Shown: positions 3,944 to 64,000, numbered from the stretch's first letter. The stretch is 64,000 bases of DNA from Candidatus Woesearchaeota archaeon (GCA_964578345.1 CAZOCP010000001.1:2028-66027), one strand, 5' to 3'. Notes: generated by a model not told the origin, from the sequence alone. A program made the numbers and translations.

Positions 3944-4261
3944 TCATTTATTTTTTATTCTTAGAGCCAAAATACTTTTTTTGCCTGCAAAATCATCAAT
4001 AATTCCAAGAACAGATATGTTTTTTCCTTTAAGAGAAAGAAGGCATTCACATTCAAATGAGATATTATTATCTAATAATATTACTTTGCTTTTTTCATAC
4101 GCTTTTTCATTAATAACTTTGCCTGAAAAGATAATTTTTTCATTATCTTTCAATTTGTTTATCTCTGAATAGGCTGTAATTTCTTTTGGATTTAAGAATT
4201 GTAATAATATCAATAAACAAAACAATCCCAGGATTCCTATAGATAAAGATAATCTGCGCAT
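3944..4261 (-). CDS. small secreted/membrane-anchored hypothetical protein
   Basis: N-terminal signal/TM segment LSIGILGLFCLLILL; 105 aa. Confidence 0.3.
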   Translation of the reverse strand: MRRLSLSIGILGLFCLLILLQFLNPKEITAYSEINKLKDNEKIIFSGKVINEKAYEKSKVILLDNNISFECECLLSLKGKNISVLGIIDDFAGKKSILALRIKNK

Positions 4262-4310
4262 CTTTTTATAAGTTAGAAAGGTTTAAATTAATCTTTCTAT
4301 TGTAGAGAAT

Positions 4311-5420
4311 ATGAATAAGAAACAGAGTAATAAGAGTAATGAAGAAGGCATAGAAGAAAGATTGCAATTGATAAAAAGTGTAGCTGATGGAGGCGAGATA
4401 ATAGGTGAAGATGAGTTAAGAGGAATTATTGCTTCTGGAAAAGAGATAGTTGCTTATGATGGTTTTGAACCTTCCGGATTAGCACATATTCCATTTGGAT
4501 TGCTTAGGGCAGAAAATTTAAAAGTCATGTTGAGAGCAGGCGTTAAGTTTAAACTGTTACTTGCCGATTACTTTGCATTTATTAATAACAAATTAGGTGG
4601 AGATTTGGAAAGAATAAAAAAAGCTGGAGAGTATTTTGTTGAAGTATGGAAAGCATGCGGTGTTGATACGAGTAAAGTTGAAATTGTTTGGTCTTCAGAT
4701 AGAATGAATAGGTTGGCTTATTGGGATAGGGTATTGAGAATAGCGAAGGAAACAACTTTGAATAGAATTATGAGGGCTACAACAATTATGGGCAGAAAAG
4801 AGGGTGAGCTACACTCTACTGCCCAATTGTTTTATCCAACTATGCAAGTTTCAGATATTTTTGATTTGAATGTTGACATTTGCCAGCTTGGGTTGGATCA
4901 GAGAAGAGCAAATATTCTTGGAAGAGAAATGGCTGAAAAACTAAAATGGAAAAGACCGGTTGTTGTTTCACATCATATGATTTTAGGGCTGCAGGGAATA
5001 CAATCTGGACAAGACAAAGAAGAAATAATAATCGCAAGTAAAATGAGTAAGAGCAAGCCGGAAAGTGCTATTTTTATGCATGACGATTTTGAAGAGATAA
5101 AAAAGAAGATTGAGAAGGCATATTGTCCTGAAAAGATATTAGAGGGAAATCCTCTATTTGATTATCTGAGATATTTAATTTTTAAAAGATATTCTAAAGT
5201 AAAAATAGAGAGACCTAAAAAATTTGGAGGAAATTTGGAATTAGATTATTCAGAGCTGAAGGAGGTTTATGAAAGGGGAGATTTACATCCTTCTGATTTG
5301 AAGAAGGCAGTTATATTTTATTTAAATGAAATGATAGCTCCTGTTAGAGAATACTTTGAAAAAAATAAGAGAGCTAAGGAATTGTACGAAGAAGTTAAAA
5401 AATATGCTTTAACTAGGTAG
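4311..5420 (+). CDS. tyrS: tyrosyl-tRNA synthetase (archaeal type)
   Basis: GFEPSG...H motif, KMSKS motif, and C-terminal KKAYCP..EGNP...RP.KFGG..HP.DLK block typical of archaeal TyrRS. Confidence 0.85.
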   Translation: MNKKQSNKSNEEGIEERLQLIKSVADGGEIIGEDELRGIIASGKEIVAYDGFEPSGLAHIPFGLLRAENLKVMLRAGVKFKLLLADYFAFINNKLGGDLERIKKAGEYFVEVWKACGVDTSKVEIVWSSDRMNRLAYWDRVLRIAKETTLNRIMRATTIMGRKEGELHSTAQLFYPTMQVSDIFDLNVDICQLGLDQRRANILGREMAEKLKWKRPVVVSHHMILGLQGIQSGQDKEEIIIASKMSKSKPESAIFMHDDFEEIKKKIEKAYCPEKILEGNPLFDYLRYLIFKRYSKVKIERPKKFGGNLELDYSELKEVYERGDLHPSDLKKAVIFYLNEMIAPVREYFEKNKRAKELYEEVKKYALTR

Positions 5421-5547
5421 GATTCAGGGATCGCCAACACCTTCAAATTGGCCAAATCTTAATTGTTCTAAATATCTTCTACGTAGAGAATGTAAAGTTT
5501 CTGTTACATGATAAAATTGGTAATACTTTTTTTATTTCATGCAAAAT

Positions 5548-6306
5548 TCAGAGACGCAGTATTTTTGGCATTGTTGCTTCATAGACTTCAAGATGCCAGT
5601 AACCTCTGGAGCCCTTTCTTTCTACTTCAGCATAGAGGCCTGATCTGAGAGAATCAACAATTGTAAGCAGGTCTTTTGTAAGAGGAATTTTTATAGCATT
5701 AACAAGCTCAAGGTTTTGAAAGCACTCTCTTGCAGATTTAATTATTTTTTCGCTGTCAGAGAAGTTTATCACAACAGGAAAATAAAGCCTGCCATTTTCT
5801 TTTAAGTAATTTGAAGATTGTTTTATGAGGGGGATTATTTTTTCTGTGCCGTCAATTCCGCCAGCAGGGACTGCCTGAGGATACCATCCTAGGGCTCTAG
5901 CAGGCTCTTCAGCCATGCCTGATATGTCAGATACAATAAAATCTGCTTTAAGATCTGGATAATCAGAATTGAGAGGCTCAAATATATTTCCCTGCAATAA
6001 AGTTACTTTCTTTGTTAGATTGTATTTTTCTATATTTTTACAGGCAAGCTCGTACTGTTCAGGAATTATTTCTATGCTATAAAGGTGTTGGATTGGTTGT
6101 GAGGCAAGTATAACTGTAAGAGGGCCGGTACCTGAACCGAGTTCAATGCCAATTTCATTTGGATAGGTTTTTACTGCTTCTGCAATTGCCGCAGTTGTTT
6201 GATTTGGCATAAACAAAGATGAAGAAACTAACAGCTTGAGCGCTTGGCCATTGACAGAAAGGAACTTGAATTCCTGCTCAATAATATCATCTAAGGCAAG
6301 TGTCAT
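5548..6306 (-). CDS. class I SAM-dependent methyltransferase (HemK/PrmC-like fold, NPPY motif replaced by DISG)
   Basis: GSGTGPL SAM-binding loop; the overall pattern resembles N5-glutamine methyltransferases but has VSDISGM where NPPY is expected. Confidence 0.55.
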   Translation of the reverse strand: MTLALDDIIEQEFKFLSVNGQALKLLVSSSLFMPNQTTAAIAEAVKTYPNEIGIELGSGTGPLTVILASQPIQHLYSIEIIPEQYELACKNIEKYNLTKKVTLLQGNIFEPLNSDYPDLKADFIVSDISGMAEEPARALGWYPQAVPAGGIDGTEKIIPLIKQSSNYLKENGRLYFPVVINFSDSEKIIKSARECFQNLELVNAIKIPLTKDLLTIVDSLRSGLYAEVERKGSRGYWHLEVYEATMPKILRL

Positions 6307-6497
6307 GCATTCCTGAAACCTTTCAGGTATAAAAAATCTTCCCAGAAGGTCCTTCTTTTTTCTGTAATACTTACTCTCGCTTTCATCACGTCTTTTGCCA
6401 TAGGCGGAATAAGTTTTTCTTTTCGCACTATTTTTAGCAATTCGTAAAAGTCTCCAGGTCCAAATACTTCATAATGGACACCTAATATTTCATGCAT
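6303..6497 (-). CDS. small hypothetical protein overlapping the start of the methyltransferase gene
   Basis: 64-aa ORF, 4-nt overlap (coupled). Confidence 0.25.
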   Translation of the reverse strand: MHEILGVHYEVFGPGDFYELLKIVRKEKLIPPMAKDVMKARVSITEKRRTFWEDFLYLKGFRNA

Positions 6498-6563
6498 GCT
6501 TTATCTTTCTTTTTTTATTATTTAAATGTTTTTGCTCTGGTGTATCTGGACGGAGTGGTAAAA

Positions 6564-7472
6564 TCATGATGTATGAAATTCAACAATATCTTTATCTTTT
6601 AAAATATGGCCAAGGCCCACTTTTTGATTTGGAAATTTGCTCGAGGGGCCAGTAACGCGAGTTGCTTTTATTCTTTGAGAAAAACCCTTAAGTATACTTT
6701 CTGCAGCATCTTTGACTGTGGAGTTCTGAGACAAAACCAAGGGGATTTGAGAAATAGATTTGCCCGGCTCTTTCATGTAGACGCGGACGACGCCCATGTT
6801 TTGAAATATTTTTTCTTTTAATTGTTCAATTCCCCTGTTTGAAAAACAAGATATTAGTATTGCAGGAAGTTTTTTACTTCTTATTTTTTCCTGGAGTTTG
6901 CGAATTTCCTCTTCTGATAATAGATCTATTTTATTTACAATTATTATTCTCTTTCCTGTTGTTTTTACTAAATATGGAGAGATTTTTTCTATTTCTTCTA
7001 ACTTAGTAATCACTAGGATAATCAAGTCTGCAGTGTTTGCTACCCCCATATCTAACTTTTCTGATCCTATACTTGGAAGATCAACTATTTGCGCCCTTAC
7101 ACCACGATACTCAAGCGTGCCAACTTCTGGAGTTTGTGTAGTAAAAGGATGCTCAGATATGAGCGGGCAAGCGTTTGTAATTTTTGATAGAAGCGAAGAT
7201 TTGCCTGATTTTGTGAATCCGATGAGAACACATTGAAATCCTTCTTTACGAATAGTCTTACGTGTTGTTTTTCCTATTTTTTTGCTTTTTTCTTTTTTTT
7301 CTTTAAGCTTTTTAAGGCGGGTTTTAAGTTCAGCAAGTAGATTCTCACTAGATTTATGTTTAGGGGCAGATCTAATCATCCCTTCCAGTGCAGTAATTTT
7401 TTCTTCTATTGTTGCTGCCCGCAAATATATCTTTTCTGCATTGATAAATTCATAAGATGCATTAACTGGCAT
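6564..7472 (-). CDS. Obg-family GTPase of DRG type with C-terminal TGS domain
   Basis: G1 GFTKSGKSS, G3 DLPS, G4 NKID; N-terminal helical region and C-terminal TGS-like beta-grasp. Confidence 0.7.
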   Translation of the reverse strand: MPVNASYEFINAEKIYLRAATIEEKITALEGMIRSAPKHKSSENLLAELKTRLKKLKEKKEKSKKIGKTTRKTIRKEGFQCVLIGFTKSGKSSLLSKITNACPLISEHPFTTQTPEVGTLEYRGVRAQIVDLPSIGSEKLDMGVANTADLIILVITKLEEIEKISPYLVKTTGKRIIIVNKIDLLSEEEIRKLQEKIRSKKLPAILISCFSNRGIEQLKEKIFQNMGVVRVYMKEPGKSISQIPLVLSQNSTVKDAAESILKGFSQRIKATRVTGPSSKFPNQKVGLGHILKDKDIVEFHTS

Positions 7473-28904: not shown

Positions 28905-29840
28905 ATGTACAATTACACTCAGCTATTGGAAAGAATATCTTCTGCTTCTAAGATGACTTTAGACGATATTGAGAGAAAAATAGAAGCGAAAAGAGCCAAA
29001 TTGTCAGGGCTTGTTTCTAAAGAAGGGGCAGCTCAGATTGTTGCTGCGGAGCTGGGGATTCATTTTGATAAAGAAAGAATGAAAATCGCAGAGCTTGTGC
29101 AGGGGATGAGAAGAGTCAATGTTCTTGGAAAAATCATTGAAGTTTTTCCTGTCAGAAGTTATAATAAAAATGGGAGAGAAGGAAAAGTCGGCAGTTTCTT
29201 GTTGGCTGATGAAAGCGGAAATACTAGAGCAGTATTGTGGGATACTCATCATATAAGCCTCGTCGAGAATGGAGAGATTGGTTTAGGAAGCGCTGTTGAA
29301 TTATCTAATGCAAGTGTCAGGAACAGTGAGCTGCATTTGTCCGCTTTTAGCGATATTAAGAAAAGCAACGAGTCCATAGGTGAAGTCGTAAAAGAAAAGC
29401 AGTTTACTGCACACTATATTAAAGATGCTAAACCTGGGGTTTCGCTGAAAACCAGAGCATTTATTTTGCAGATGTTTGAACCTAGATATTTTGAAGTGTG
29501 CCCTGATTGCAGCAAAAAAGCTGTCGAAGGAATCTGTGCTGTGCATGGAAAAGTGCTGCCGCAGAGGCGCGCGCTTTTAAACGTTGTTATTGATGATGGG
29601 ACGGGCTCTTTGAGAAGCGTTCTGTTTCTTGAACAGCTCAGAGCTCTTGGGCTAGATGACGAGTCTATTTTTTCAATCGAAAAATTTGCTTTGCAGAAAC
29701 AACAAATACTGGGCGAAGAAAAATTTTTCTCAGGAAATATTAAGAATAACAGTTTATATAATACATTAGAATTCAATATAGGGGCAATAGAAAACTTTTC
29801 AGTTGACGCTCTGCTGAAAGAGTTTGAGGGGCGCGCATAA
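28905..29840 (+). CDS. RPA-like single-stranded DNA-binding protein (OB fold plus zinc ribbon)
   Basis: OB-fold-like region with the aromatic/basic pattern, plus a CPDC...C..H zinc ribbon (CPDCSKKAVEGICAVHG). Confidence 0.6.
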   Translation: MYNYTQLLERISSASKMTLDDIERKIEAKRAKLSGLVSKEGAAQIVAAELGIHFDKERMKIAELVQGMRRVNVLGKIIEVFPVRSYNKNGREGKVGSFLLADESGNTRAVLWDTHHISLVENGEIGLGSAVELSNASVRNSELHLSAFSDIKKSNESIGEVVKEKQFTAHYIKDAKPGVSLKTRAFILQMFEPRYFEVCPDCSKKAVEGICAVHGKVLPQRRALLNVVIDDGTGSLRSVLFLEQLRALGLDDESIFSIEKFALQKQQILGEEKFFSGNIKNNSLYNTLEFNIGAIENFSVDALLKEFEGRA

Positions 29841-45192: not shown

Positions 45193-48100
45193 TCAAAACC
45201 ATTTGCCAAGAACCTCCTGTCTCTCTTTCTCCCTTCCAAATATACTCTGAATATATTTTTGAGTCAGCTCAAGACTCTCAAGCAAGTACGGACTAACTTT
45301 ATATTTTTTAGCCAAGTCAAGAGCTGGAAGCAAATATTTTAAAATACTTCCTTCTGAAACAGTAAAAATAAGCTTTCCTCCGCATCTTGTACATTTCCCC
45401 GTTAAAGGGGGTCTTCTAAATTTTTCATTGCAACCAACACATCTAAAAACTTGCTGTGAAAATTTTCTAAGATTTCCTCGTATATCTCTAATAAAATGCC
45501 TTTCAATTATCAATCTCGAAACATCCCTTACATCTACTGCCCTCAACTTACCGCATAAGTTCATCATAGAATCAACTTTGTCCTGCATGGCGGGCAAAGT
45601 CTTGTAAACTGAACATAATGGCCCAGCATTAATATTTGAAGTATCATAAGAAAACCATAATTCTTCAAACTCTTTATTTGTTCCGAGTCTGCCTCTTACT
45701 TGCTCCATTTTAATTTCAAAAGGAGAAGAATGTCTTTCGGCAGCTTCATAAAGAGCCAAAGGAATTTTTTTTGAAACATCAACATCAAATATCATATCAT
45801 CAACCTCATTCGCTCGAATTCTCATATTTAAAACAAGTGGGGCGTCTTGAGTGCCTCCTCTATGCGAAGGCAAAAACTTGCGTGAAAAATTTAATAATAA
45901 ATCCATTAAAAGCATTACTGCTGCTTCATCTCCATCGCAATCTCTCCTCATTGCGGCATGAATATAAGGAGAAGCTAATAAAGCCTGTGTTTGTGAAAAC
46001 CCTATTAACCTGCCTGCTACCGCGGCAGAAGTATGTGGAGACATACAAGCAAACAAACAGCCTACCAAGTCTTCTCGTTTAGAAGCGTTAAAAAACCTAT
46101 TCAGATTATATAGTTTTTCTAACTCATCATCAATAAACCTGGCGACTGATAAAAAAACAGCGTCTGCTCTTTCATCTGGAGTAACAGGACAAGATGGTAA
46201 GATAATATCGTGAGGGTAAATCTCCAATATCTGATCGTCTCTCTCAAGCTCCTTTCCATAAATATCAGAAGTATAGCCCATGTTCTTCAGCTTTGAAATG
46301 CTCGTCCCAATCTCACAGGGTTTAAAATGAGTCAGGGGCATCTCAGTCATATCGTATCTGATTGTTCCATCTTTGTTTACATTAAGATTGTGTTTTGCTC
46401 TGAGTAACCCTTTAGATAAATGCTCGCAATTATGGTCTTTGTTGCTGGTTCCTCTAACTCCTTTAACAATAAAGCTTATTTCCTCTTCTCTAAGTCCAAT
46501 TTTCTTTCTAGCTGAAGTGTAGTATGAAAAGACATCAATGTGGTTATTGTGATATGATTTCGAAAATCCATGTTCTTTGCACGTTTCAAATGAAAAAGAA
46601 TCGCATGAAGAACAGTAGTATCTCAATATGCATTCTTGTCTGCACTTCTCGCAAAAAGGATAAACTGAATCAATTGAGCAGTTTCTGCAGAAATACAGGG
46701 GAAACTCTGCCTTAACTCCTCCTTCCTCTATAGCAGACAAAAGGCTTCTCATTCTTCCTCCTTCCTCTCCTACAGGAAAAAGAACATGCGGACTTCCTAC
46801 AAGCTTGCGCAATTTAGCTTTCTCTGGTCTGCCCATTCTCGCGCCTATAAATGTGCCTGATTTATCTTTTATTTTAACAGGACAAAGTTCATTAATAATA
46901 TCTAATACCGGCTTATTGGATATTCTAACAGAAATGGTATCTATGTTTTTTTCTAATAAAGAATAATCAAGAATACCTAAATTAAACAGTAGCGCTTTGG
47001 TATTTTTTTCAGAAAGAACAACATTCTCAATGCTCAGGCTATGCTCACACCCTATAATTTCAAGTGCCCTTTTTCCTTTAGAAAATCTCTCTTTATCTTG
47101 GCGCGTAAAGGGTAGCACAAGACTCTTTTCTCTAACTTCTCCATGTGCAATCCAGTCTAATAAAGCAAGAAAATCTTCATAAGAAATTTCCCTCCAATAG
47201 TAAATAAAAGAAGGGTGAAGAGGAACTTTATATTTTTCTGACATAATCAGAGCATCAGAAAAAACAGGAAACATTTCACTATTCCCTCCTGCAGCCATTA
47301 GCTCTTCCAGCCAATACTGCTCAATATAGCCTGCCTCCTCTAACGGATGATTCCTATTTAAAAAATCTCCATAAGGAACTAGCAAATCTCCCAAATAAAT
47401 AATCTCAATAATCTGTGGGTATATCTTCAAAGTCTCGTTATGGTCTTTAAGAATTCTAACGGCCCCGTCTAATAATTTAACTATCGGACCGTCTATGTTA
47501 TCACAGATTGCGATTGTACATCCTTTTGTAGGTTTCTCGATTTTCAACTGTGTCCCGACTGCAATAAACCCTTGGGTAACCGCCATTGTCGCAGGATGAA
47601 GCGCAAGAGTAGAGTATCCTGTATTTCGGCATCTGCCATACCTCAAACGAAAAGCTCCAGACCTAGAAGGGTGCGCAAAAACCGGCCTTCCGGCAACTAA
47701 ATCTTGAATGTATGTGGCTCCAGAACGCTGGCCTCCTGCCTCCCTCTCTTTAATTTTCTTTTGTAGTTTAACAAACTCTTCCAGCCAATCCCACCCGGAT
47801 AAATTAAATCCTTTTTGTTTTAATTTTATTATTCTCCCTAAAACCTTCGGCGCCTTCTGTGCAAGGCCTTCTCCAATAACTAAAGCAAATCCGCTCCTAA
47901 TAAAATTAGTCTCTATTCGCGGAAGATCTTTATAATTATAAACTTCTTTGTCCTCGCTAGGGTCTCCGGTTAATTGAACAGGCAAATTTTGCATAAGAAA
48001 CTCCAGTTCTTTTTCAGAAGGAAGATACTGTAAATTTGTAATGCGCTCGTGGTATTCATAGCACTCGTGAATTCCTCGTTTGATTTCGTCATCTGTGGGG

Positions 48101-48633
48101 TCGTAAAGAGCATATCCAAAAATTTCACGAAGGTAATCAATAATAACTAAAGAAAAAGCAGCCTCGGTCCCCCCTGCCGATCTAATTGGCCCCGAATAAT
48201 ATGGAGCAAAAAAATCTTCTCCTTTAGAAGTCTTCTTTAATTTAAGTTGTATAAATCCCTCAATAGGAGAAGAAACATACCCTAAAGTCAAATATCCTAT
48301 TGCAACTCTGATTCCCGCCTCAATTGCTTCTAAATGACTTTGGAATTTACAAAACTTTTCTTTTGCAATTTCCTCTGCAATCTTCAATGCAACAGCAGGG
48401 TCAAGAGAGCCGTATTGTTTCTCTAATTCAAAAATTCTTCGGATAATTCCTTGGTCAATAATCTGAGGGTATAAAACTGAAACTAATCCGACGACTCTTT
48501 CTGCCAAAGAATTAGCTAGGGGAACTTCAACATCGCTCACAGGGTCGTATCCCTTCTTTTTTGCCTCCTTTGCTATAGTATAACATATTTGAACATTGTC
48601 TTCAATAGAAGAAAAATGATGATTAATATGCAC
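45193..48633 (-). CDS. polC: DNA polymerase II (PolD) large catalytic subunit DP2
   Basis: 1146 aa; multiple Cys clusters (CRNCSIDSVYPFCEKC, CSSCDS) and the conserved DP2 length and organisation; no intein. Confidence 0.9.
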   Translation of the reverse strand: MHINHHFSSIEDNVQICYTIAKEAKKKGYDPVSDVEVPLANSLAERVVGLVSVLYPQIIDQGIIRRIFELEKQYGSLDPAVALKIAEEIAKEKFCKFQSHLEAIEAGIRVAIGYLTLGYVSSPIEGFIQLKLKKTSKGEDFFAPYYSGPIRSAGGTEAAFSLVIIDYLREIFGYALYDPTDDEIKRGIHECYEYHERITNLQYLPSEKELEFLMQNLPVQLTGDPSEDKEVYNYKDLPRIETNFIRSGFALVIGEGLAQKAPKVLGRIIKLKQKGFNLSGWDWLEEFVKLQKKIKEREAGGQRSGATYIQDLVAGRPVFAHPSRSGAFRLRYGRCRNTGYSTLALHPATMAVTQGFIAVGTQLKIEKPTKGCTIAICDNIDGPIVKLLDGAVRILKDHNETLKIYPQIIEIIYLGDLLVPYGDFLNRNHPLEEAGYIEQYWLEELMAAGGNSEMFPVFSDALIMSEKYKVPLHPSFIYYWREISYEDFLALLDWIAHGEVREKSLVLPFTRQDKERFSKGKRALEIIGCEHSLSIENVVLSEKNTKALLFNLGILDYSLLEKNIDTISVRISNKPVLDIINELCPVKIKDKSGTFIGARMGRPEKAKLRKLVGSPHVLFPVGEEGGRMRSLLSAIEEGGVKAEFPLYFCRNCSIDSVYPFCEKCRQECILRYYCSSCDSFSFETCKEHGFSKSYHNNHIDVFSYYTSARKKIGLREEEISFIVKGVRGTSNKDHNCEHLSKGLLRAKHNLNVNKDGTIRYDMTEMPLTHFKPCEIGTSISKLKNMGYTSDIYGKELERDDQILEIYPHDIILPSCPVTPDERADAVFLSVARFIDDELEKLYNLNRFFNASKREDLVGCLFACMSPHTSAAVAGRLIGFSQTQALLASPYIHAAMRRDCDGDEAAVMLLMDLLLNFSRKFLPSHRGGTQDAPLVLNMRIRANEVDDMIFDVDVSKKIPLALYEAAERHSSPFEIKMEQVRGRLGTNKEFEELWFSYDTSNINAGPLCSVYKTLPAMQDKVDSMMNLCGKLRAVDVRDVSRLIIERHFIRDIRGNLRKFSQQVFRCVGCNEKFRRPPLTGKCTRCGGKLIFTVSEGSILKYLLPALDLAKKYKVSPYLLESLELTQKYIQSIFGREKERQEVLGKWF

Positions 48634-50197
48634 GATTGATTTCCTCCTCTACGCCGAAATCATAAACTTTCAGTTCTCTTGTTTTTAGGTTTAACACTGG
48701 AACTTTTGCAGGTTCTGGAATATTTCCAACTTTCTCTTCAAATTCTGTCTGGGCCTGCCAACAGCTTCCAGTTATAATAAGAGTCCCGTTGTAATTCTCA
48801 ATATCTAGTCTATGCACTTCTCCTGTACATAAAACATCTGGAACTTCTTCTATAACCAATGGATCTTTTTCTGCATTTGGGATATAGATAACTGAAGAAT
48901 GTGTTGGTGCAAGGTGCCTTCTCTTTAACATATGTCTAACTGCTTTGGCGGGCGATCTGTGCGCTTTCATTTCCCTTAATTCAGGAATCTCATTAATAAA
49001 AGAATGTATGCTTGCTCCATGGTACATTAAAACTTTAAATTCTTTGTCCTGCTCATAGAGCTTCACAAGCGAGGGATTAGTCACAAGCACTAAATTTTCT
49101 ATTTCGTATAAAGGAGAGCCGTAATATCTATCGATTAATGGCTGTGGTTCGGCAACTCTTGTTGCGTCATGCTGCCCAGGACACATAAAAATAATTATGT
49201 TTTTAGGTATTCTTTTCATATAAGAAGCCAAAAGAGAATATTGCTCTTTCATGCTTTTCAAAGCTAAAACCTGCTCTTGCCCGGGAAAAATTCCAACTCC
49301 ATCGACATTGTCTCCGGAAAAAAACAAATATTTAATTTTCTTAGCTGATTCTTCATCACTGTTAATCCACTCTAAAAAACGTTCGAAGCTTTTGTATAAA
49401 TGTCTGTCGCTCCCACAATGAACGTCGGATAAAAAAGCAATTGATATGTCTTGCTCGAATTTTGATTTCTCAAGAAGAAAAGCATCTGGGAAATAAATAT
49501 CATGAATAAAAATAATATCTCGGTTTCCTGACGCTTTAACAGCAACTACATCATCTAGCTGCAGTTCTCGGGCTTTGTTAAAAACCTCTAGCCGCTCTAA
49601 TTTTACCAAGCCGCTGATTTTTCCTGTCAAATCTTCCAAAGAAATAATTAAGTTCTTATTTTTTGTCTGCCTCTTTTCATTTACGATTCCAATAATGCTT
49701 AATTGTTGCCTCTCACTAGAAATTTTATTTATTGAACACAGATTCGTCAAATCTTGCCTTTGCATTAAAATACGTTGTAGTTGTTGATAGCGCGAACGAA
49801 AGTGATTTATAAAGTCAGAAACCTCGATTTTCTTAGAGGGAAGCGTAGATGAATAAAATAGTCTATAAGAAGAAGTCTGGGGGTTTATATTTTCTATTCC
49901 CGCACTTGATAGATTTATTTTTTCTTTTCTAATTTCAAATTTAATTCCTAATTTAATAAAAACATTCTCTATAGATAATTTATCTTCGCCTGACAGTTGC
50001 CCTAAAATTTGCTGAACATATTCTATATTATTTGATAAAGTAGATTTGGTTATTAATTTCTGCCCGGAAAATCTAACAAGATTTTCCAAAAAAACTTGCG
50101 CAATTTTTTTATCTTGTATGCTCTCTAAAATATCAAAAATCTCTTTTTCTAATAATAGCCCGCTCTCCCGAATTGTGTTTAAAATATCAGAATTCAT
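48623..50197 (-). CDS. polB: DNA polymerase II (PolD) small subunit DP1 (calcineurin-like phosphoesterase/exonuclease)
   Basis: OB-fold region plus metallophosphoesterase motifs (FLSDVHCGSD, FFSGDNVDG, GQHD, GHxH). Confidence 0.9.
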   Translation of the reverse strand: MNSDILNTIRESGLLLEKEIFDILESIQDKKIAQVFLENLVRFSGQKLITKSTLSNNIEYVQQILGQLSGEDKLSIENVFIKLGIKFEIRKEKINLSSAGIENINPQTSSYRLFYSSTLPSKKIEVSDFINHFRSRYQQLQRILMQRQDLTNLCSINKISSERQQLSIIGIVNEKRQTKNKNLIISLEDLTGKISGLVKLERLEVFNKARELQLDDVVAVKASGNRDIIFIHDIYFPDAFLLEKSKFEQDISIAFLSDVHCGSDRHLYKSFERFLEWINSDEESAKKIKYLFFSGDNVDGVGIFPGQEQVLALKSMKEQYSLLASYMKRIPKNIIIFMCPGQHDATRVAEPQPLIDRYYGSPLYEIENLVLVTNPSLVKLYEQDKEFKVLMYHGASIHSFINEIPELREMKAHRSPAKAVRHMLKRRHLAPTHSSVIYIPNAEKDPLVIEEVPDVLCTGEVHRLDIENYNGTLIITGSCWQAQTEFEEKVGNIPEPAKVPVLNLKTRELKVYDFGVEEEINRAY

Positions 50198-51399
50198 TGG
50201 AATAAAGCACGATCTAAAATATCCCGCGCCTTTGGTTTAATGTTTTGGCCTAACATCAGTTTTATCTCGCGCATTCTCCCCCTACGTCCTTTGCTGATTA
50301 CTTGCGCAGTTATAATCCCAAGCATATCAAACTCCGCGAGAATATCTGAAATTCTTCTTTGTGTTAGTATTTCATTTTTCGTCTTCTCGCATAATAATTG
50401 ATAAGCACCATAAACTTCGCCTGTGTAAATGGGGCTAGACTTATTTGTATCGTCTAATTGCATAATTGCAGCCAAAACCAATTGAAATTGTCTTGGCTCG
50501 CTCTCGATAATATCAAGCATTTTGTCTTTCTCTATTTTCTGATTTGCAGAATCTATATGGGATAATGTAATAGACTTGCTCTCTTCTCTTTCTGCCAGCT
50601 CTCCCGCAACTCTCAGCAAATCAAGCGCTCTTCTGGCGTCCCCGTGTTCTCTAGCTGCATAAGCCGCGCATTTTGCTAGAACTCCTTCGCCTAATACCCC
50701 TTGTTTAAATGCGTGCTGCGCTCTCTCTCTCAAAATATCCTGTAATTGCAGTGCATTATAGGGCGAGAAAACCATCTCCTCCTCTCCTAAAGAGCTCTTA
50801 ACTCTAGGATCCAAATTATCCTTAAATGTTAGGCTGTTGCTTATCCCAATAATGCTGATCTGGGCGTGTCTCAGCTCTGAATTCAGTCTGGTCAAAGTAT
50901 AAATAAAACTATCAGAAATCTTTTTGACTGCTTGGTCTATTTCATCTAATACTATAATAATAATTTGTTTTTTATAATCTATTAATTCAATAAATCTTCG
51001 ATAAACTTCATCCGTAGGAAGTCCGGTTGCCGGGACTGTCCCCCCTAAAGTATTTATCAACTCTGCAAGAATCCTGTATTCTGTGTCTGCAATTTTTTTA
51101 AGTTTGCAGTTTATATAAACAAATTGCAGGTTCTCCTCTCCAAGTTCTTTTATTTTATCCATTAGCTTCAAACCAACGTGTTGGACGCATAGCGTCTTTC
51201 CGCTTCCTGTCTTGCCATAAACAAAAAGATTGCTGATTCTCTCTCCTCGCAGCGCGGGCGCCAATATGGAAGCCACCGAAGCAATTTGTTCGTCTCTGTG
51301 CGGAACAAAATCAGGCGTATAGTTCGATTGTAAACAGCTCTTATTTTTAAATAAACTCTGAGATACAAATGCATTAAAAATACCCTCAACTCTGTCCAT
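50194..51399 (-). CDS. cdc6: Orc1/Cdc6 replication initiator
   Basis: AAA+ Walker A VYGKTGSGKT, Walker B, sensor motifs and a C-terminal winged helix. Confidence 0.9.
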   Translation of the reverse strand: MDRVEGIFNAFVSQSLFKNKSCLQSNYTPDFVPHRDEQIASVASILAPALRGERISNLFVYGKTGSGKTLCVQHVGLKLMDKIKELGEENLQFVYINCKLKKIADTEYRILAELINTLGGTVPATGLPTDEVYRRFIELIDYKKQIIIIVLDEIDQAVKKISDSFIYTLTRLNSELRHAQISIIGISNSLTFKDNLDPRVKSSLGEEEMVFSPYNALQLQDILRERAQHAFKQGVLGEGVLAKCAAYAAREHGDARRALDLLRVAGELAEREESKSITLSHIDSANQKIEKDKMLDIIESEPRQFQLVLAAIMQLDDTNKSSPIYTGEVYGAYQLLCEKTKNEILTQRRISDILAEFDMLGIITAQVISKGRRGRMREIKLMLGQNIKPKARDILDRALFQ

Positions 51400-51439
51400 A
51401 TATCACCTCTAAATTCTAGATGTAATAAGAGATTATAAA

Positions 51440-52060
51440 CTTATAGGTATTATTTTTCATATTTCCTGTGGAAAAAAGAATTTAAAGAGAATAAACCCTC
51501 CTTGAAGAAAAAAACAAACAATATCTCACACCTTGCTTTCCTATGGAGAACATAAACAAATGAAACATTCCCAAATTAATAAATGATTTGTATATAACCA
51601 TAAATTTGTATATAACCATAAAATACAGTTTATATTAACTTTATACTAAATACAATTTATATTAACTTTATACTATATAATAATACTCTAGAGTATTATT
51701 AATTACCAATCAGAACATTATATATAACCATAAATACACTTTTTATTACATAGTCCTATTAATCCGAATATTATACATAACTATAAAAAATACTTTCTAA
51801 TATATTATATTTAATTATATACTATTATATAATATCTTTTTCTATATAGTATATTTAATTATATACTATTATAAAACATACTTTCCAATATAATACATTT
51901 ACTTATATACTATTACATAATATATTTTTCTATATATTATATTTATATATGGAAAAATTTAAAAAGGAAGAAAAAATCCACGAGGAACAAACTCACTATA
52001 TAAATCCCCTCCATGAGAAACAATAGGGTCTCCAGGAAACAACCTTAAACCAAGAAACAA
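51440..52060. promoter_or_regulatory. putative replication origin (oriC) with ORB-like dyads, AT-rich direct repeats and a palindrome
   Basis: ORB-like TTTCC-N3-GGAAAA (51462-51475), TTTCC-TAT-GGAGAA (51536-51550), TCCA-CGA-GGAAC (51976-51992), TCCATGAGAAAC (52006-52022), TCCAGGAAAC (52029-52044). Direct repeats TATATAACCATAAAT x3 and TTTATATTAACTTTATACT x2. A 22-nt perfect palindrome lies at 51679-51700; the element is adjacent to cdc6. Confidence 0.6.
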
Positions 52061-52204
52061 CTCCAACCCAAGAAACAACACCCCATATTTCATATTATCA
52101 CCAATCCACACAATCTCCCCACCCCCTTCCCACAACCTATTATCCCCTTTATCCAGTACAAAAAATAGAGAAAAGTTTATATATATCTCACAATTACAAA
52201 CCAC

Positions 52205-59782: not shown

Positions 59783-59950
59783 ATGGCGAAAACAACAGCG
59801 TGGTTAGTAACTTTAATAGGAGTTCTTTATCTATTGCCTCTTATAGGCGTCGACATTGGCGTAGATCTTTCCATGTGGCTTATTGCCCTGTCTTTCTTGG
59901 CCATCGGAGTTACTAAGCTTATGCGCAATTATAGCGGCAAGCGCAAATAA
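59783..59950 (+). CDS. small membrane protein (55 aa; not in the ORF track)
   Basis: An AAGGAGGTG SD lies 5 nt upstream; translation MAKTTAWLVTLIGVLYLLPLIGVDIGVDLSMWLIALSFLAIGVTKLMRNYSGKRK. Confidence 0.35.
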   Translation: MAKTTAWLVTLIGVLYLLPLIGVDIGVDLSMWLIALSFLAIGVTKLMRNYSGKRK

Positions 59951-60012
59951 GTAGATAAAGACAAGTTTTTCTTTTTTTATTAATTTTCTTTTTTCTTTAT
60001 CTTTTTTAACAA

Positions 60013-60044
60013 GCTCAATCTTTCTAGCTTAAACAAAAAATTTC
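60013..60044 (+). repeat. 32-nt direct repeat copy 1 (GCTCAATCTTTCTAGCTTAAACAAAAAATTTC)
   Basis: 30/32 identity with 60649-60680; each copy lies 60-80 nt downstream of a tiny membrane-protein gene. Confidence 0.45.
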
Positions 60045-60435
60045 AGCGTCACTCAAAGATTCGGTTTAATAGAAAGATTCATAAGACATTGTCACTTAAG
60101 ATTTATATGTCAAGAATATCGAGACCTCGAGTCAAATATGGAAAAATAAAAATTAGGTTGTCTAATAGAAATTTAAGGATAAAAGAAGTATAAAACTATT
60201 ACACGAATCTCGAAAGAATCCTTCCTCTATAACGCCTAGCCACGATCTCGAAACAATGCTAAAAGAATCAGCAACAAAGATATAAGTCCACGTTATTCTT
60301 TCCCACATAATATTTTCAAAAATAAATAGCCTCAGTTATGAGTGAGGCCGAAGGCCGAACGCGCGCCACACCACACCACACCACAATATCAGACTATATC
60401 AAAAAATATATAAAGTCTTAAAACTTTAATACATA

Positions 60436-60597
60436 AATGGTTTCTATAAGTCTAACAATATCAGGGATTCTGGCAATTATTATAGGGATACTTATCTTAA
60501 TATGGCCCAAAATACTTCGTATAGGTGTTGGTTTTTATCTTATCATCATAGGGATTCTTCAACTTTTTAACTCCTATGTGCAATTTTCTCCTAACTA
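60436..60597 (+). CDS. small membrane protein (53 aa; not in the ORF track)
   Basis: Translation MVSISLTISGILAIIIGILILIWPKILRIGVGFYLIIIGILQLFNSYVQFSPN (DUF308/HdeD-like GIL repeat pattern). Confidence 0.35.
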
Positions 60598-60648
60598 ATT
60601 AGTCAAAGCAAGCTTTTTACAACAATTATTCACAACAAAAATAACTCT

Positions 60649-60680
60649 GCTCAATCTTTCTAGCTTCAACAAAAATTTTC
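60649..60680 (+). repeat. 32-nt direct repeat copy 2
   Basis: See copy 1. Confidence 0.45.
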
Positions 60681-61184
60681 CGCACATCAAAAAGTTCTCT
60701 TTATCCAGGAGATTTTTTCTTTAATATTAAAACAATAGCCTTAGTCGTATAGGCGCCGAAGGCGCCGTCACAACAGCCCAAATCAATAAAAACAGCAGAT
60801 AAAAGAAGGAGAGAAGAATTAGACAACACAGAATTCATAAAATAAATAAATTTAAGTCCGCGTAATATTTCTCCTTTCGCTTAAAACTTTCAACACACTC
60901 TAATCTAAGACCGGCTATTTAGGACTTTTCAACCAAAAGGCATGGCAGAATTACGGTTAATGATGATTAGACGAAATCTCTCACTTGCCTGTCGGTTGCC
61001 CGTCGACAAAAAACATAAAATAGGCAATTCTTATAATCGATTTCTCATTCCGTTTAAACATTTTCAAAAACGGATACGCCATTCGGCGTATAATCTCGTT
61101 TAAACGCAATTGTCAAGAAGTAAATGATATCGGAAGTTGTTCTCCCACCCAATAGTGGCGCGCGCTGGAAAAAGAAAAATAAAT

Positions 61185-61658
61185 TTAATCCTGTTTTTTA
61201 ATCCAATCTTTCCATTTTTTATCATTCACTATTACTGCACGATCATTTGCTTCCCAAAGTATCTTCGGATACTGCTTCATAATATATTCCCTTCCATTAG
61301 CATCTCTTCCTCCTGCAACATAAGGAAAAAAGTCAAAAGTGTAAAAAGAAGGATGTTCTTCATCGTGGAAGTATTCCTGTAGTCTTAGATTTATAGCCAC
61401 GGATAGAAATCCGCCAAATACTATCTCCTTGTCAAAATGGATATAGTGCAGTTTCTGAGTAAGTTCATCACTCCTATGTTTCAGAATGATTTCTATATGC
61501 TTTCTATTGGCGAGATAGAATCCTAATTCTTTGTAATTTTTTTCTACCTTACGAACTACATCCCACTTATCTTCTCCAATATTGTCTGGGAGATCCACGA
61601 TTTCATAATCAAATTTAAGGTCTTCCTCTAGACGTAAGATTAATTGTTTATTTTTCAT
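61185..61658 (-). CDS. hypothetical protein, tandem paralog 1
   Basis: 157 aa; its N-terminal half is similar to the neighbouring ORF (GFYLANRKHIEIILKHRS..LHYIHFDKE versus GYLIARKENIDHLLRKKQ..LEYFYFDEY). Confidence 0.4.
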   Translation of the reverse strand: MKNKQLILRLEEDLKFDYEIVDLPDNIGEDKWDVVRKVEKNYKELGFYLANRKHIEIILKHRSDELTQKLHYIHFDKEIVFGGFLSVAINLRLQEYFHDEEHPSFYTFDFFPYVAGGRDANGREYIMKQYPKILWEANDRAVIVNDKKWKDWIKKQD

Positions 61659-61668
61659 AGTGGTAATT

Positions 61669-62160
61669 TCAAGAATCCTCCATAATCTTAGTTTCTTTAG
61701 GATAATCTGATTTTTGTATCATAACTATTCTTACATTTTCACGCCAAAGATCAGGATCAAAATATTTTTTTGAACCATCTTCAAATTTTATAGTACAACT
61801 ATGATGATGAACAGGAAGAAGGCGAGATTCAAATCTTTGGTTTATGTTACTATATGAGATAGAAGCTAAATGGTGTTCTTTTCTAGGGCTTCCTAACGGC
61901 ATAGCTAATCCGCCTGCATAAAAACAATCATATTCATCAAAATAAAAATATTCTAAAGACTTATCTAGCGCTAGTTGTTTTTTTCTTAATAAATGGTCTA
62001 TATTTTCTTTACGAGCAATAAGGTAGCCTTTTTCATAATATTCTCTTTGCATTGAATAGATAACTTCTCTAATATTCTTGCCTACTTGTTCGGATGACTC
62101 TATAAGTAGATAGTTCTTCCTTTGCGTATTTTCTTCATTGTTTTTCATAATCTTCTTCAT
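61669..62160 (-). CDS. hypothetical protein, tandem paralog 2
   Basis: 163 aa, paralogous to 61185..61658. Confidence 0.4.
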   Translation of the reverse strand: MKKIMKNNEENTQRKNYLLIESSEQVGKNIREVIYSMQREYYEKGYLIARKENIDHLLRKKQLALDKSLEYFYFDEYDCFYAGGLAMPLGSPRKEHHLASISYSNINQRFESRLLPVHHHSCTIKFEDGSKKYFDPDLWRENVRIVMIQKSDYPKETKIMEDS

Positions 62161-62241
62161 TTTATTTATTATTTAACTTTTTATGCCTCTTTAGTTAATT
62201 TATTAGGAAAAGTATATATAGGGCAAGTCATAACTAAATTT

Positions 62242-63156
62242 ATGCTGGATAAGATAGATCAAATAATACTTGAGAGCCTCTTTAATAATTGCAGAATTTC
62301 AAATAAGGAGTTGGCAAGGATGCTTAAAATTACTGAACCCGCTACTCTTAAAAGAGTTAGAAGGCTGGAACAAGAGCATATTCAGAAGTATGATGGAATT
62401 ATTAACTGGGATAAAATGCCGTTTAGAAAGGTTTGGTATTTTGCTAACTTGATTGACGTAAAGAAAATTATTGACCAAAAACCAGTTTTGGGCTTTTTGG
62501 AGACAGCAGGATACTATAAGCACGCGTTTGCTTGCTTTTTTAGAAATCTAAAAGATAAAAGAAAATTTGAGTCTCTTTTGCCCAAAGAAAAAATTATTTT
62601 AGATATCAATTCTTTTCATTCTAAACCTATTTCTTTATTTGACGTTTCTCATAATATAGAAAAAGATAGAATGACTGAGGAAGAGGAAAAGATAACAAAA
62701 AAGGATATAAAGATATTAGAATGCGTCTGTGAAGGTGGCGGAAGATTATCTTTATGGGATATTTCCAAGAAAATTGGTTTAACTTATGAAATTGTAAGGT
62801 ATAGGTTTAAAAAATTAGTAAGTGCAGGATATTTTAGTCGTTTTATTGCCCAGCCAAACTCTACAAAGTTCGGAATAACCACAATTTACGTCCATTTGCA
62901 GTTTAAAAGGAAAGTTCCTATTGAAAAACTAGAGAGAATTAAGCAGACTTTAGGTTATTTAATTTGTGAAGACAATAATGTTTTAGTTCCTATTTTCACA
63001 AATTCTTTCCACAATTACGTTGATGAAATTAGTTCTATATTGGATCAATTTAGAGATGAATTGAAAAAAGTAGATTTTTATCCTATAAAAAATGCTCTTT
63101 TGTTGAATAGATATCCCTTTGAATACCTATTGAGAAAAACGGCGCGCGCCAAATAA
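62242..63156 (+). CDS. transcriptional regulator with two Lrp/AsnC-type HTH domains
   Basis: Start set at MLDKIDQIILESLFNNCRISNKELARMLKITEPATLKRVRRLEQE (Lrp-type HTH); the second copy is KKDIKILECVCEGGGRLSLWDISKKIGLTYEIVRYRFKKLVSAGY. Confidence 0.5.
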   Translation: MLDKIDQIILESLFNNCRISNKELARMLKITEPATLKRVRRLEQEHIQKYDGIINWDKMPFRKVWYFANLIDVKKIIDQKPVLGFLETAGYYKHAFACFFRNLKDKRKFESLLPKEKIILDINSFHSKPISLFDVSHNIEKDRMTEEEEKITKKDIKILECVCEGGGRLSLWDISKKIGLTYEIVRYRFKKLVSAGYFSRFIAQPNSTKFGITTIYVHLQFKRKVPIEKLERIKQTLGYLICEDNNVLVPIFTNSFHNYVDEISSILDQFRDELKKVDFYPIKNALLLNRYPFEYLLRKTARAK

Positions 63157-63655
63157 ATCCTCCCACCCACAACTTCCTCAAATAACTTGACAATTACATT
63201 CGAAATAAATTATAAGAACAAGTTCGAGACTCTCGAGAGCCTTCGTGGCTAGCTCGAGGTTTATTGCATAAACCCGCCTAATCACAAGTAAACGGCAAAT
63301 ATCTCAATTTCTCCGAAATTGTTTTGCTTCGTGCAAAAAATGATATTTGACCTAACTTTCAAAATAGATCTAATAATAAATTGCCTTTGAAAGTTCGTTT
63401 ACAGCGTAGGATTAAGCGAAAATGACTTCTGCCTGAAATTACAAATAAAATAATAGCAGGTAAACATGCACTCTTCTTTCTGTCGCTCCGCTTAAACCTT
63501 TCCTGAAAACTTGCGCTGTTCAGCGCCTAATCCCGTTTAAGCGAAATTACCTCGAAGTTAAAAGAGAAATTTGTTTTTCCCGCCCAATAGGAGAAATTGT
63601 TTCCGCCGCCGAATACAAAAAAGTGAGCCACCGAGTGCTAAAGCACAGATTCTGC

Positions 63656-63934
63656 TTACACAGAGAAATTATTTATAACTGACTCTCTGATTGTTCTAGC
63701 TAGGACGGGGTTCTTGACAACTGTTAATTGAATGTTGGTTTTCATAGAAATTATTTTAAGAAATTCACTTAGATTTGTTTTCTCAATTTTATCATGTTCT
63801 GAAAAGAATTCGTCTAGTTTTTTAGTTATTTCTTTTGGATGTGTAGTGTAGATTACCAAATCTCCATATACTCCAAGATTGTACCCTTCTTTAAAATCCT
63901 TAGGACGAGTCATAGCTTTTGAATGAACCCCCAA
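63656..63934 (-). CDS. hypothetical protein
   Basis: 92-aa ORF. Confidence 0.25.
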   Translation of the reverse strand: MGVHSKAMTRPKDFKEGYNLGVYGDLVIYTTHPKEITKKLDEFFSEHDKIEKTNLSEFLKIISMKTNIQLTVVKNPVLARTIRESVINNFSV

Positions 63935-64000
63935 ATCATTGTAATATTTGATTGTCCATTTATCAATGGCCGTTTTTCCAAAACAGACATAGTATAATGA

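Follow-up and report, generated by a model that had tools for sequence, protein, structure and literature searches.

Long-range pairing around an insert is exemplified in archaea by the processing stems of 16S and 23S rRNA, which carry bulge-helix-bulge cleavage motifs and enclose the rRNA, while passenger insertion sequence (IS) derivatives, miniature inverted-repeat transposable elements (MITEs) and foldback elements are multi-copy elements in which inverted-repeat arms flank passenger genes and which can fold into long hairpins. The attC recombination sites of integrons measure about 57–141 nt. Integron arrays, including those of archaea, are co-oriented tandem arrays of short, variable and mostly uncharacterised cassettes between conserved structures (Ghaly et al. 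2022, PMC9668308). In Nanoarchaeum equitans, tRNA halves are transcribed separately and joined, and the GC-rich stretch of each half is complementary solely to the matching half (Randau 2012, PMC3491384). Here we describe arms of about 230–250 nt that lie on each side of a gene block in a 64,000-nt stretch of Candidatus Woesearchaeota archaeon (GCA_964578345.1 CAZOCP010000001.1:2028-66027; hereafter the window, with coordinates counted from its first letter on the plus strand) and that are complementary through nested stems with conserved side branches. Sequence comparison indicates that the arms belong to a family of long-range hairpins around genes that has not been described before and whose members retrieved here come almost entirely from Woesearchaeota, Pacearchaeota and Nanoarchaeota (DPANN). 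They show the defining features of none of the known families tested and, on comparative evidence from metagenome assemblies, appear to constitute a new category; a literature search returned nothing equivalent to gene-bracketing arms.

The window contains three units of this kind, at ~22.65–23.67 kb (unit C), 60.94–63.39 kb (unit L) and from 63.39 kb on (unit R). The left boundary of unit L reads CTCCCACCCA (61142–61151), then ATAGT, then GGCGCGCGC (61157–61165), and the right boundary reads GGCGCGCGCC (63141–63150), then AAATAAATC, then CTCCCACCCA (63160–63169). Direct reading of both sides confirms these sequences and coordinates exactly as the original prediction gave them, where they were described as inward-facing GGCGCGCG palindromes and outer direct-repeat decamers that bracket a three-gene module. 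The comparative data indicate instead that one stem, closing across the 2-kb gene block, takes one strand from each GGCGCGCG palindrome, and that in the internal loop next to it a conserved motif lies opposite its own second copy, these being the two CTCCCACCCA decamers (GGGUGGGAG when read on the folding strand). Complementarity extends into the flanks through a middle stem (GGAAGTTG at 61132–61139 with CAACTTCC at 63170–63177), an outer stem (AATTGTCAAG at 61108–61117 with CTTGACAATT at 63186–63195) and, further out, 61028–61044 with 63202–63218. Deletion of 61152–63169 in silico gives one closed branched fold; without their genes the arms fold into a closed rod of ~460–480 nt, of which the gene block forms the apical loop. 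When a tetraloop stands in for the cargo between complete arms, unit L (479 nt) reaches −156 kcal/mol compared with −117 ± 6 for shuffled sequences (z −6.4), and unit R, spliced likewise (462 nt), reaches −154 kcal/mol compared with −122 (z −5.0). The parts of unit L are as follows.

60940–61167, minus strand: left arm of unit L (3′ arm on the folding strand), with the core, outer stem 61108–61117, middle stem 61132–61139, tract 61142–61151 and inner stem 61156–61167.
61043–61115, minus strand: core domain of the left arm, a 12-bp stem (GUUUAAAC type) around the hairpin ACGCC-GAAU-GGCGU, scoring 81.5 bits with covariance model R1, which was built for the arm core.
61142–61151, minus strand: left C-tract, 3′ side of the internal loop, GGGUGGGAG on the folding strand; the left decamer.
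61156–61167, minus strand: inner GC stem, left strand TGGCGCGCGCTG, pairing with 63140–63151; the left palindrome.
63140–63151, minus strand: inner GC stem, right strand CGGCGCGCGCCA; the right palindrome.
63160–63169, minus strand: right C-tract, 5′ side of the internal loop, UGGGUGGGAG on the folding strand; the right decamer.
63139–63385, minus strand: right arm of unit L (5′ arm on the folding strand), with middle stem 63170–63177, outer stem 63186–63195, the segment 63202–63218 paired with 61028–61044, and a local hairpin.
63275–63294, minus strand: distal part of the right arm, pairing with 60954–60973; the arm terminus is AACTTTCAAA at 63354–63363.

Base pairing is supported by covariation both within single arms and between them. 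Across the retrieved loci there are 33 distinct copies of the local core, a 12-bp stem around a 5-bp hairpin, in which 96.2% of 552 cells pair, compared with 89.5% after shuffling (0 of 500 shuffles reach the observed value) and 31–45% when the pairing is slid. Double-sided changes number 42 in the core, as against 13.6 in shuffles, and the covarying columns are free positions of the retrieval pattern or lie outside it. For the long-range stems, RNAalifold applied to 10 L-type units yields outer, middle and inner stems with a total of 32 pairs, 9 of them with double-sided changes. The inner stems are specific to their units (GGCGCGCGC; GAGAAATTG/CAATTTCTC; TGGCGTGCA/TGCACGCCA; AGAGAAGGC/GCCTTCTCT), and a unit's own left and right arms pair about twice as well as foreign ones (−18.8 versus −9.3 kcal/mol). 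Right arms were found by similarity to a known right arm, as reverse-complement alignment is too noisy in the presence of large asymmetric loops. Middle and inner stems are separated by the internal loop in which the two tracts lie opposite one another, both arms reading GGGYGGG on one strand; across units the central base alone varies, and in most units the tracts of the two arms are similar and not identical (e.g. CTCCCGCCCA / CTCCCACCCA in locus L007).

The helices show a marked preference for one strand. In the helices that bridge the two arms of 12 units, 69 G:U pairs fall on the minus strand compared with 17 on the plus strand, the minus strand being the more stable in 11 of the 12, and the core helices contain 58 G:U pairs on the minus strand compared with 4 on the plus. 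This excess of wobble pairs identifies the minus strand of the window as the folding strand.

As in the rRNA processing stems, pairing joins regions up- and downstream of a kilobase-sized insert within one strand, and several brackets follow in series. In contrast to those stems, the arms have no canonical bulge-helix-bulge: two 3-nt bulges separated by a 4-bp helix do not occur in unit L, where 12 bp of inner stem run without interruption beside an internal loop of ~16 by 18 nt whose two sides are both G-rich. Protein genes in either orientation, moreover, take the place of the insert, and it is the arms that form the conserved, multi-copy part. The unit-specific GC inner stem is formally like the GC matching stretch of the split tRNAs of N. 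equitans, a member of a related AT-rich lineage; unlike those halves, which are trans-spliced into tRNA, the arms form no known RNA, flank genes at one locus and pair over ~230 nt.

A degenerate pattern derived from the three window left arms retrieves 16 loci in GTDB genomes, 15 of which are labelled Woesearchaeota, Pacearchaeota, Nanoarchaeota or archaeon, and an L-type boundary pattern retrieves 10 metagenome loci. The window itself is archaeal, as shown by PolD DP1/DP2, Orc1/Cdc6 and a GC content of 33%. Wherever sufficient DNA is available downstream of a copy, a complementary partner lies 0.4–3.2 kb away. In the window R1 detects 3 copies and no more, each on the minus strand, and elsewhere 2 up to 4 per locus (8–13 kb); among 35 copies in the 14 non-redundant loci with at least 2 copies, none is inverted. 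Some related contigs carry one unit every 2–3 kb, and no cargo-less hairpin that might represent an empty site occurs in 207 kb of loci. Within the window the arm copies, including the left-arm paralogs of unit L at 63441–63590 and 22684–22817, are mutually 63–67% identical.

Known RNAs (tRNA, rRNA, signal recognition particle RNA, RNase P, group I and II introns, HEARO/omega) were rejected as identities for the arms on the basis of Rfam searches, which at gathering score return two tRNAs only for the whole window (36028 and 44905) and, at E values up to 5, chance-level matches to small nucleolar and small RNAs only for 59900–64000 and 22500–24200. Group I introns have been reported in DPANN rRNA genes, a different context from that of the arms. 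A virus or plasmid origin was likewise rejected, as the family core has zero matches in viral contigs. Locus L013 (MGPL01000001.1, labelled Deltaproteobacteria GWA2_55_10) carries one family copy at the start of a GC-rich, bacterial-looking contig, which is probably chimeric or mis-binned; cross-domain transfer is less likely. In a subfamily comprising L009, L010 (first copy), L013 and L019, a G-rich run (e.g. ACGGGGGGGCGGCTCGGGG) occurs on the element strand, and architecture therefore varies between subfamilies. The same four loci share a conserved CAGATAGTC motif and a hairpin just inside the cargo boundary.

Successive units abut, and the right-arm end of one together with the left-arm start of the next forms a small junction hairpin, for which compensatory variants are present at 11 junctions in other arrays. 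The right arm of unit R lies outside the window, at ~65128–65330 of L001, a longer public contig that matches the window tail with 100% identity. The remaining features of the array in the window are listed here.

63354–63395, minus strand: junction hairpin between units L and R, AACTTTCAAA (63354–63363), a 22-nt AT-rich loop and TTTGAAAGTT (63386–63395).
63386–63650, minus strand: left arm of unit R, with core 63481–63552 and tract TTTTCCCGCCCAATAG at 63575–63590.
63656–64000, minus strand: start of the unit R cargo, a 288-aa open reading frame (ORF) running to 64522 in L001; no Pfam match.
22652–22790, minus strand: left arm of unit C, shortened, with core 22678–22748 and tract plus inner stem TCCCCCACCCGACGGCGCG at ~22771–22790.
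22811–23569, minus strand: cargo of unit C, a single 252-aa ORF; no Pfam match.
23644–23673, minus strand: right boundary of unit C, GACGCGCGCCGTC-CCCCACCC-GACGGCGCGC, in which tract and GC stem repeat the left boundary over 19 nt.

Motif statistics bear on whether the boundaries of unit L could be fortuitous, that is, whether the GC motifs are simply C-terminal codons and a terminator and the decamer repeat has arisen by chance. The right palindrome does encode the last residues of the regulator gene inside the bracket (ACG GCG CGC GCC AAA TAA), whose stop codon at 63154–63156 falls in the loop between the right palindrome and the right decamer. However, motif counts lie far above shuffle expectation. 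The exact decamer CTCCCACCCA occurs at 2 sites only in the 64 kb (61142 and 63160); with at most one mismatch it has 4 matches compared with 0.72 expected, a number that none of 100 shuffles reaches, and GGCGCGCGC with at most one mismatch has 13 matches compared with 0.75 expected. All 4 plus-strand sites of the relaxed tract C[CT]CCC[AG]CCC (22774, 23656, 61142 and 63160) lie at such boundaries. Searching for further motif pairs, as had been proposed, reveals a second bracketed gene in unit C (22771–23673), with TCCCCCACCCGACGGCGCG on both sides of ORF 22811–23569, so the case named with the original prediction as refuting it does not apply. The arrangement recurs, with covariation, in the window and in more than 25 loci of other genomes. 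Coincidence is thus barely conceivable as an explanation.

The original prediction suggested a mobile or exchangeable regulatory module, whose mobile form, put most explicitly, would be a non-autonomous transposon (passenger IS derivative or foldback element) with the palindromes or arms as terminal inverted repeats and the decamers as target-site duplications. Like passenger IS derivatives, MITEs and foldback elements, the units have long inverted-repeat arms around passenger genes, are multi-copy and can form a long hairpin; moreover, the decamer is identical on both sides of unit L, and 19 nt are identical in unit C. Yet the element reads ...ATATCGGAAGTTGTTCTCCCACCCAATAGTGGCGCGC... in several retrieved genomes, and the whole left boundary (decamer, ATAGT and GC stem) is therefore conserved internal sequence of the host element. 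The decamer lies inside the conserved arms as part of the family consensus, the tracts differ between the arms of most units and the GC palindromes covary as a stem, so the view of the decamers as lying outside a module, at mobile ends, does not survive. Target-site duplications are absent outside the arms, the units abut without spacers and are strictly co-oriented, and strand-asymmetric loops are conserved. Copies within the genome are old and diverged, being 63–67% alike while cross-genome counterparts are 79–87% alike, the opposite of what recent transposition would give. No transposase domain was detected by Pfam scans of the window, its extension, L021 and L022, and the arm family has no matches in viral contigs. 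We therefore regard a transposon as highly improbable. An integrated element with attL/attR ends was also considered, since a hairpin results when the flanks are joined and a GC hairpin when the module ends are; it was dropped, as the ends are conserved family sequence and the tracts are non-identical elsewhere.

What does hold of the exchangeable module is that the cargo is replaceable. Arms of the same subtype, inner GC stem included, enclose five unrelated cargos in different genomes. Compared with those of L021, the arms of window unit L show 85% identity on the left and 79% on the right, and the left arm shows 87% with that of L025; between the arms there is no similarity, homology ending at 61163 and resuming at 63133. 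These alignments show that arms and cargo have separate histories. The contig L030 carries a homologous pair of regulator and small-protein genes and has no arms, tracts or GC palindromes; hence regulator and small protein(s) are a self-standing gene pair, which in the window lineage lies inside the bracket. The description of the module as regulatory fits this particular cargo, a regulator with divergent target genes, and is not a property of the bracket.

Recombination also takes place between arms. A left arm of L021 has its match in the second right arm, 2.9 kb away, and a foreign right arm and a foreign left arm lie in the interval; L007 and L027 combine outer stems of unlike type, and array order, in addition, differs between genomes. 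A synteny of L021 with the window, initially proposed from a 57-nt match, was withdrawn because the match is a family-level motif and no flanking protein is in common. As a separate observation, the adjoining cargo genes of L021 (reverse complement 4231–7140) look like paralogs whose C-terminal membrane helices resemble each other; their arms interleave, and the arrangement suggests a tandem duplication of the unit followed by recombination between arms.

A competing explanation is an integron-like DNA cassette system, in which the arms would be structure-specific recombination sites in single-stranded DNA and the recombinase would be encoded elsewhere in the genome. The parallels are substantial: co-oriented tandem arrays of short, variable cassettes mostly of unknown function between conserved structures, a MazEF-like pair beside one unit, cassette order and content that differ between genomes, and a strand-specific fold tolerating wobble pairs, as in the attC bottom strand (PMC9668308). 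The mismatched arms of L021, L007 and L027 are as expected after recombination between units, the two boundaries of unit C carry a 19-nt direct repeat, U-runs inside the arms are irrelevant for DNA, and integrons are reported in GTDB Nanoarchaeota (PMC9668308). In contrast to attC, a short contiguous hairpin with R″/R′ boxes that is recombined by IntI, the arms form a split rod totalling ~480 nt, in which the site halves flank the cargo and no contiguous hairpin stands between cassettes. The inter-cargo piece 63139–63650 is not self-complementary, the L-type right arm mismatches the R-type left arm, and a contiguous-hairpin model gives half-matches only. R″/R′ boxes (RYYYAAC / GTTRRRY) are absent, the L-type boundaries reading ...CCCAATAGTGGCGCGCGC / GGCGCGCGCCAAATAAATCC..., and no integrase is found in ~230 kb of loci, the Pfam scans covering the ORFs of the window, its 7.6-kb extension, L021 and L022. 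Furthermore, both orientations occur among the cargos, which have promoter regions of their own, the 207 kb of loci contain no empty site, and a meeting of the arms requires single-stranded DNA over 1–3 kb. On balance we judge this explanation, the main rival to the favoured one, unlikely.

Less probable again, and in our view quite doubtful, is a role in duplex DNA, whereby the CCCRCCC direct repeats would bind protein, perhaps the tandem helix-turn-helix (HTH) regulators of the cargo, to loop or insulate the cassette, and gene conversion would keep the arms alike. The tracts are indeed direct repeats within inverted-repeat arms, tandem AsnC-type regulators adjoin the right arm in three units (window unit L, L012 and L016), and gene conversion can yield covariation between arms in the absence of folding. 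However, the arms depart from plain inverted repeats: between their short stems lie conserved loops without complementarity and branches specific to one arm, which gene conversion would erase. In addition, helices within a single arm also covary, and an excess of G:U pairs of 4:1 to 14:1 on one strand is unexpected for a duplex. Most units contain no regulator, and the variation of the tract middle base alone fits structure equally well as protein binding.

The best overall explanation in our assessment, with a rough probability of 0.45, is an RNA rod that brackets exchangeable cassettes. RNA is favoured because of the wobble asymmetry in local, long-range and junction helices, a terminator-like module downstream and a U-tract that, in most L-type units, follows the 5′ strand of the inner stem on the folding strand. 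That the structure forms in RNA from the G-rich (minus) strand, either as one transcript across whole units or as separately made arm RNAs, seems to us to come close to even odds without quite reaching them. The downstream module of the window is the following.

60317–60372, minus strand: terminator-like module downstream of the last arm, made up of a GC hairpin and, on the folding strand, a U-tract after it (GGCCUUCGGCC ... GGCUAUUUAUUUUUG).

A GC hairpin and U-tract with the same motif, strand and relative position downstream of the arms are present in 8 of 8 loci. By analogy with the processing stems that close off 16S and 23S rRNA in their precursor, the rod would close off each cassette; were the arms made separately, the matching GC-rich stretches of split tRNA halves would be the nearer model. 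The two facing GGGYGGG tracts may lock the arms, possibly through a putative inter-arm G-quadruplex, a structure that needs four stacking G-tracts of at least 3 and depends on K+, and that is suggested here by the conservation pattern. Arms common to many loci and genomes would provide ready-made flanking homology for cargo swapping, and in the cell the rod could serve in the processing, stabilisation, insulation or silencing of newly acquired genes.

Several points weigh against an RNA rod around exchangeable cassettes. RNA is inferred solely from strand-specific wobble pairs and terminator-like signals, and strand-biased C-to-T mutation could add to the G:U asymmetry. Runs of at least 5 U in the arms are not avoided, with 27 on each strand across 31 left arms. 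Where a cargo gene lies on the folding strand, it finishes with a U-tract of its own shortly ahead of the 3′ arm (e.g. 61168–61184), so a single transcript over cargo and both arms must pass terminators, and in about half of the units it would be antisense to a gene. No promoter was identified for the folding strand; the left arm that comes first in an array is preceded at 23–29 nt, on the strand opposite to the folding one, by a TATA-like YTTTATAKTTTTCGG motif (L004, L012, L020, L023, L021 and L017), which may be the promoter of the arm or of a neighbouring divergent gene. The synteny comparison with related genomes that had been proposed finds no flanking protein gene common to the window and any fetched locus, which leaves exchange at one fixed site unsupported. 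Finally, the long-range alignment (A2) was made from hand-spliced arms, and all data come from metagenome-assembled genomes and metagenome contigs.

Two further transcription-related candidates were set aside. Terminator avoidance is uninformative as a test of strand, since T and A runs are equally frequent, and the outward TTGACA-like boxes at 61117–61089 and 63186–63214 are strands of the outer stem in an archaeal host and not bacterial promoters.

A broader proposal, rather unlikely as a whole on the present comparisons, is that of a gene-cassette system of Woesearchaeota/Pacearchaeota-type archaea in which a ~480-nt rod in single-stranded nucleic acid is locked by G-tracts and arrays are either made as long precursors or recombined via their arms. 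Parallel to integrons, differently built and without a recognisable integrase, it would be a platform to hold, insulate and exchange accessory genes. In the window alone the arms comprise ~1.3 kb of non-coding sequence, a large investment in the very small genomes of DPANN archaea. If the RNA reading is true, the arms represent a new class of large structured RNA defined by bracketing protein genes, and if they are DNA recombination sites, a second archaeal cassette platform independent of integrons. Either way they mark sites where accessory genes sit and are replaced in uncultivated symbionts, and models R1 and R2 provide a sequence handle with which to map these variable regions across metagenomes.

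The gene content of unit L is borne out by the ORF, paralogy and PF13404 results, namely two paralogs on the minus strand and a divergent regulator with two HTH domains on the plus strand.

61185–61658, minus strand: cargo gene 1, 157 aa, of no known family and a near-orphan.
61669–62160, minus strand: cargo gene 2, 163 aa (159 aa in public data), a distant paralog of gene 1.
62242–63156, plus strand: cargo gene 3, a tandem AsnC/Lrp-type HTH regulator, divergent from genes 1 and 2, with its final codons and stop inside the right arm.

Genes 1 and 2 are 22% identical over 74 aa (E 4e-8), and a profile of the two, searched against 1.84 billion representatives, matches only themselves and one 169-aa relative. 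This relative, in L030, divergently adjoins a 301-aa AsnC-type regulator. The predicted structure of the 157-aa protein has a predicted local distance difference test (pLDDT) score of 35 and is unusable, with no alignment depth to better it. The window regulator matches PF13404 (E 5.5e-19) and has two AsnC-type HTH stretches, at residues 2–43 and about 149–188; a Pfam scan detects no ligand-binding (RAM) domain in it, and its distant homologs are cargo in L012 and L016.

Across the family, cargos measure 0.37–3.1 kb and comprise 1–3 genes, which lie in either orientation, have their own promoter regions and, where orientations are mixed, diverge from the centre. Their functions are unrelated, including TenA-like proteins, S-adenosylmethionine (SAM) methyltransferases, a pyridoxal phosphate (PLP) decarboxylase, tandem-HTH regulators and secreted or unknown proteins, as well as one further protein that is ketoacyl-synthase-like by sequence. 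In cargo genes on the element strand the reading frame continues across the right inner stem as far as a stop within the AAATAA or AAATTAA of the arm, and as a result unrelated cargo proteins have in common an arm-supplied C-terminal tail, ...R-A-K or ...R-V-K (window 63139–63156; L021, reverse complement ~5180–5200 and ~7140–7160; L023). Directly after the unit of L007, at 1215–1756, a PemK/MazF-like toxin ORF, recognised by sequence only, stands with a small upstream ORF, a pair that resembles the toxin-antitoxin pairs of chromosomal cassette arrays.

An isolated GC-rich palindrome, GGCGCCGAAGGCGCC at ~60750 (region 60737–60770), and a further GGCGCGCGC at 29566–29575, inside ORF 28905–29840, have no obvious link to the arm family. 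At 60317–60386 of the window the GC hairpin GTGAGGCCGAAGGCCGAACGCGCGCC is followed by a (CACCA)n run; the hairpin lies ~570 nt from the arm of unit L, and a 53-aa membrane ORF (60437–60598) lies between the two. The cluster of Orc1/Cdc6 and the small and large PolD subunits at 45193–52176 adjoins ~780 nt (51400–52176) without an ORF of at least 90 aa; the cumulative GC skew turns near 31 kb and not here, and the region is a candidate replication origin.

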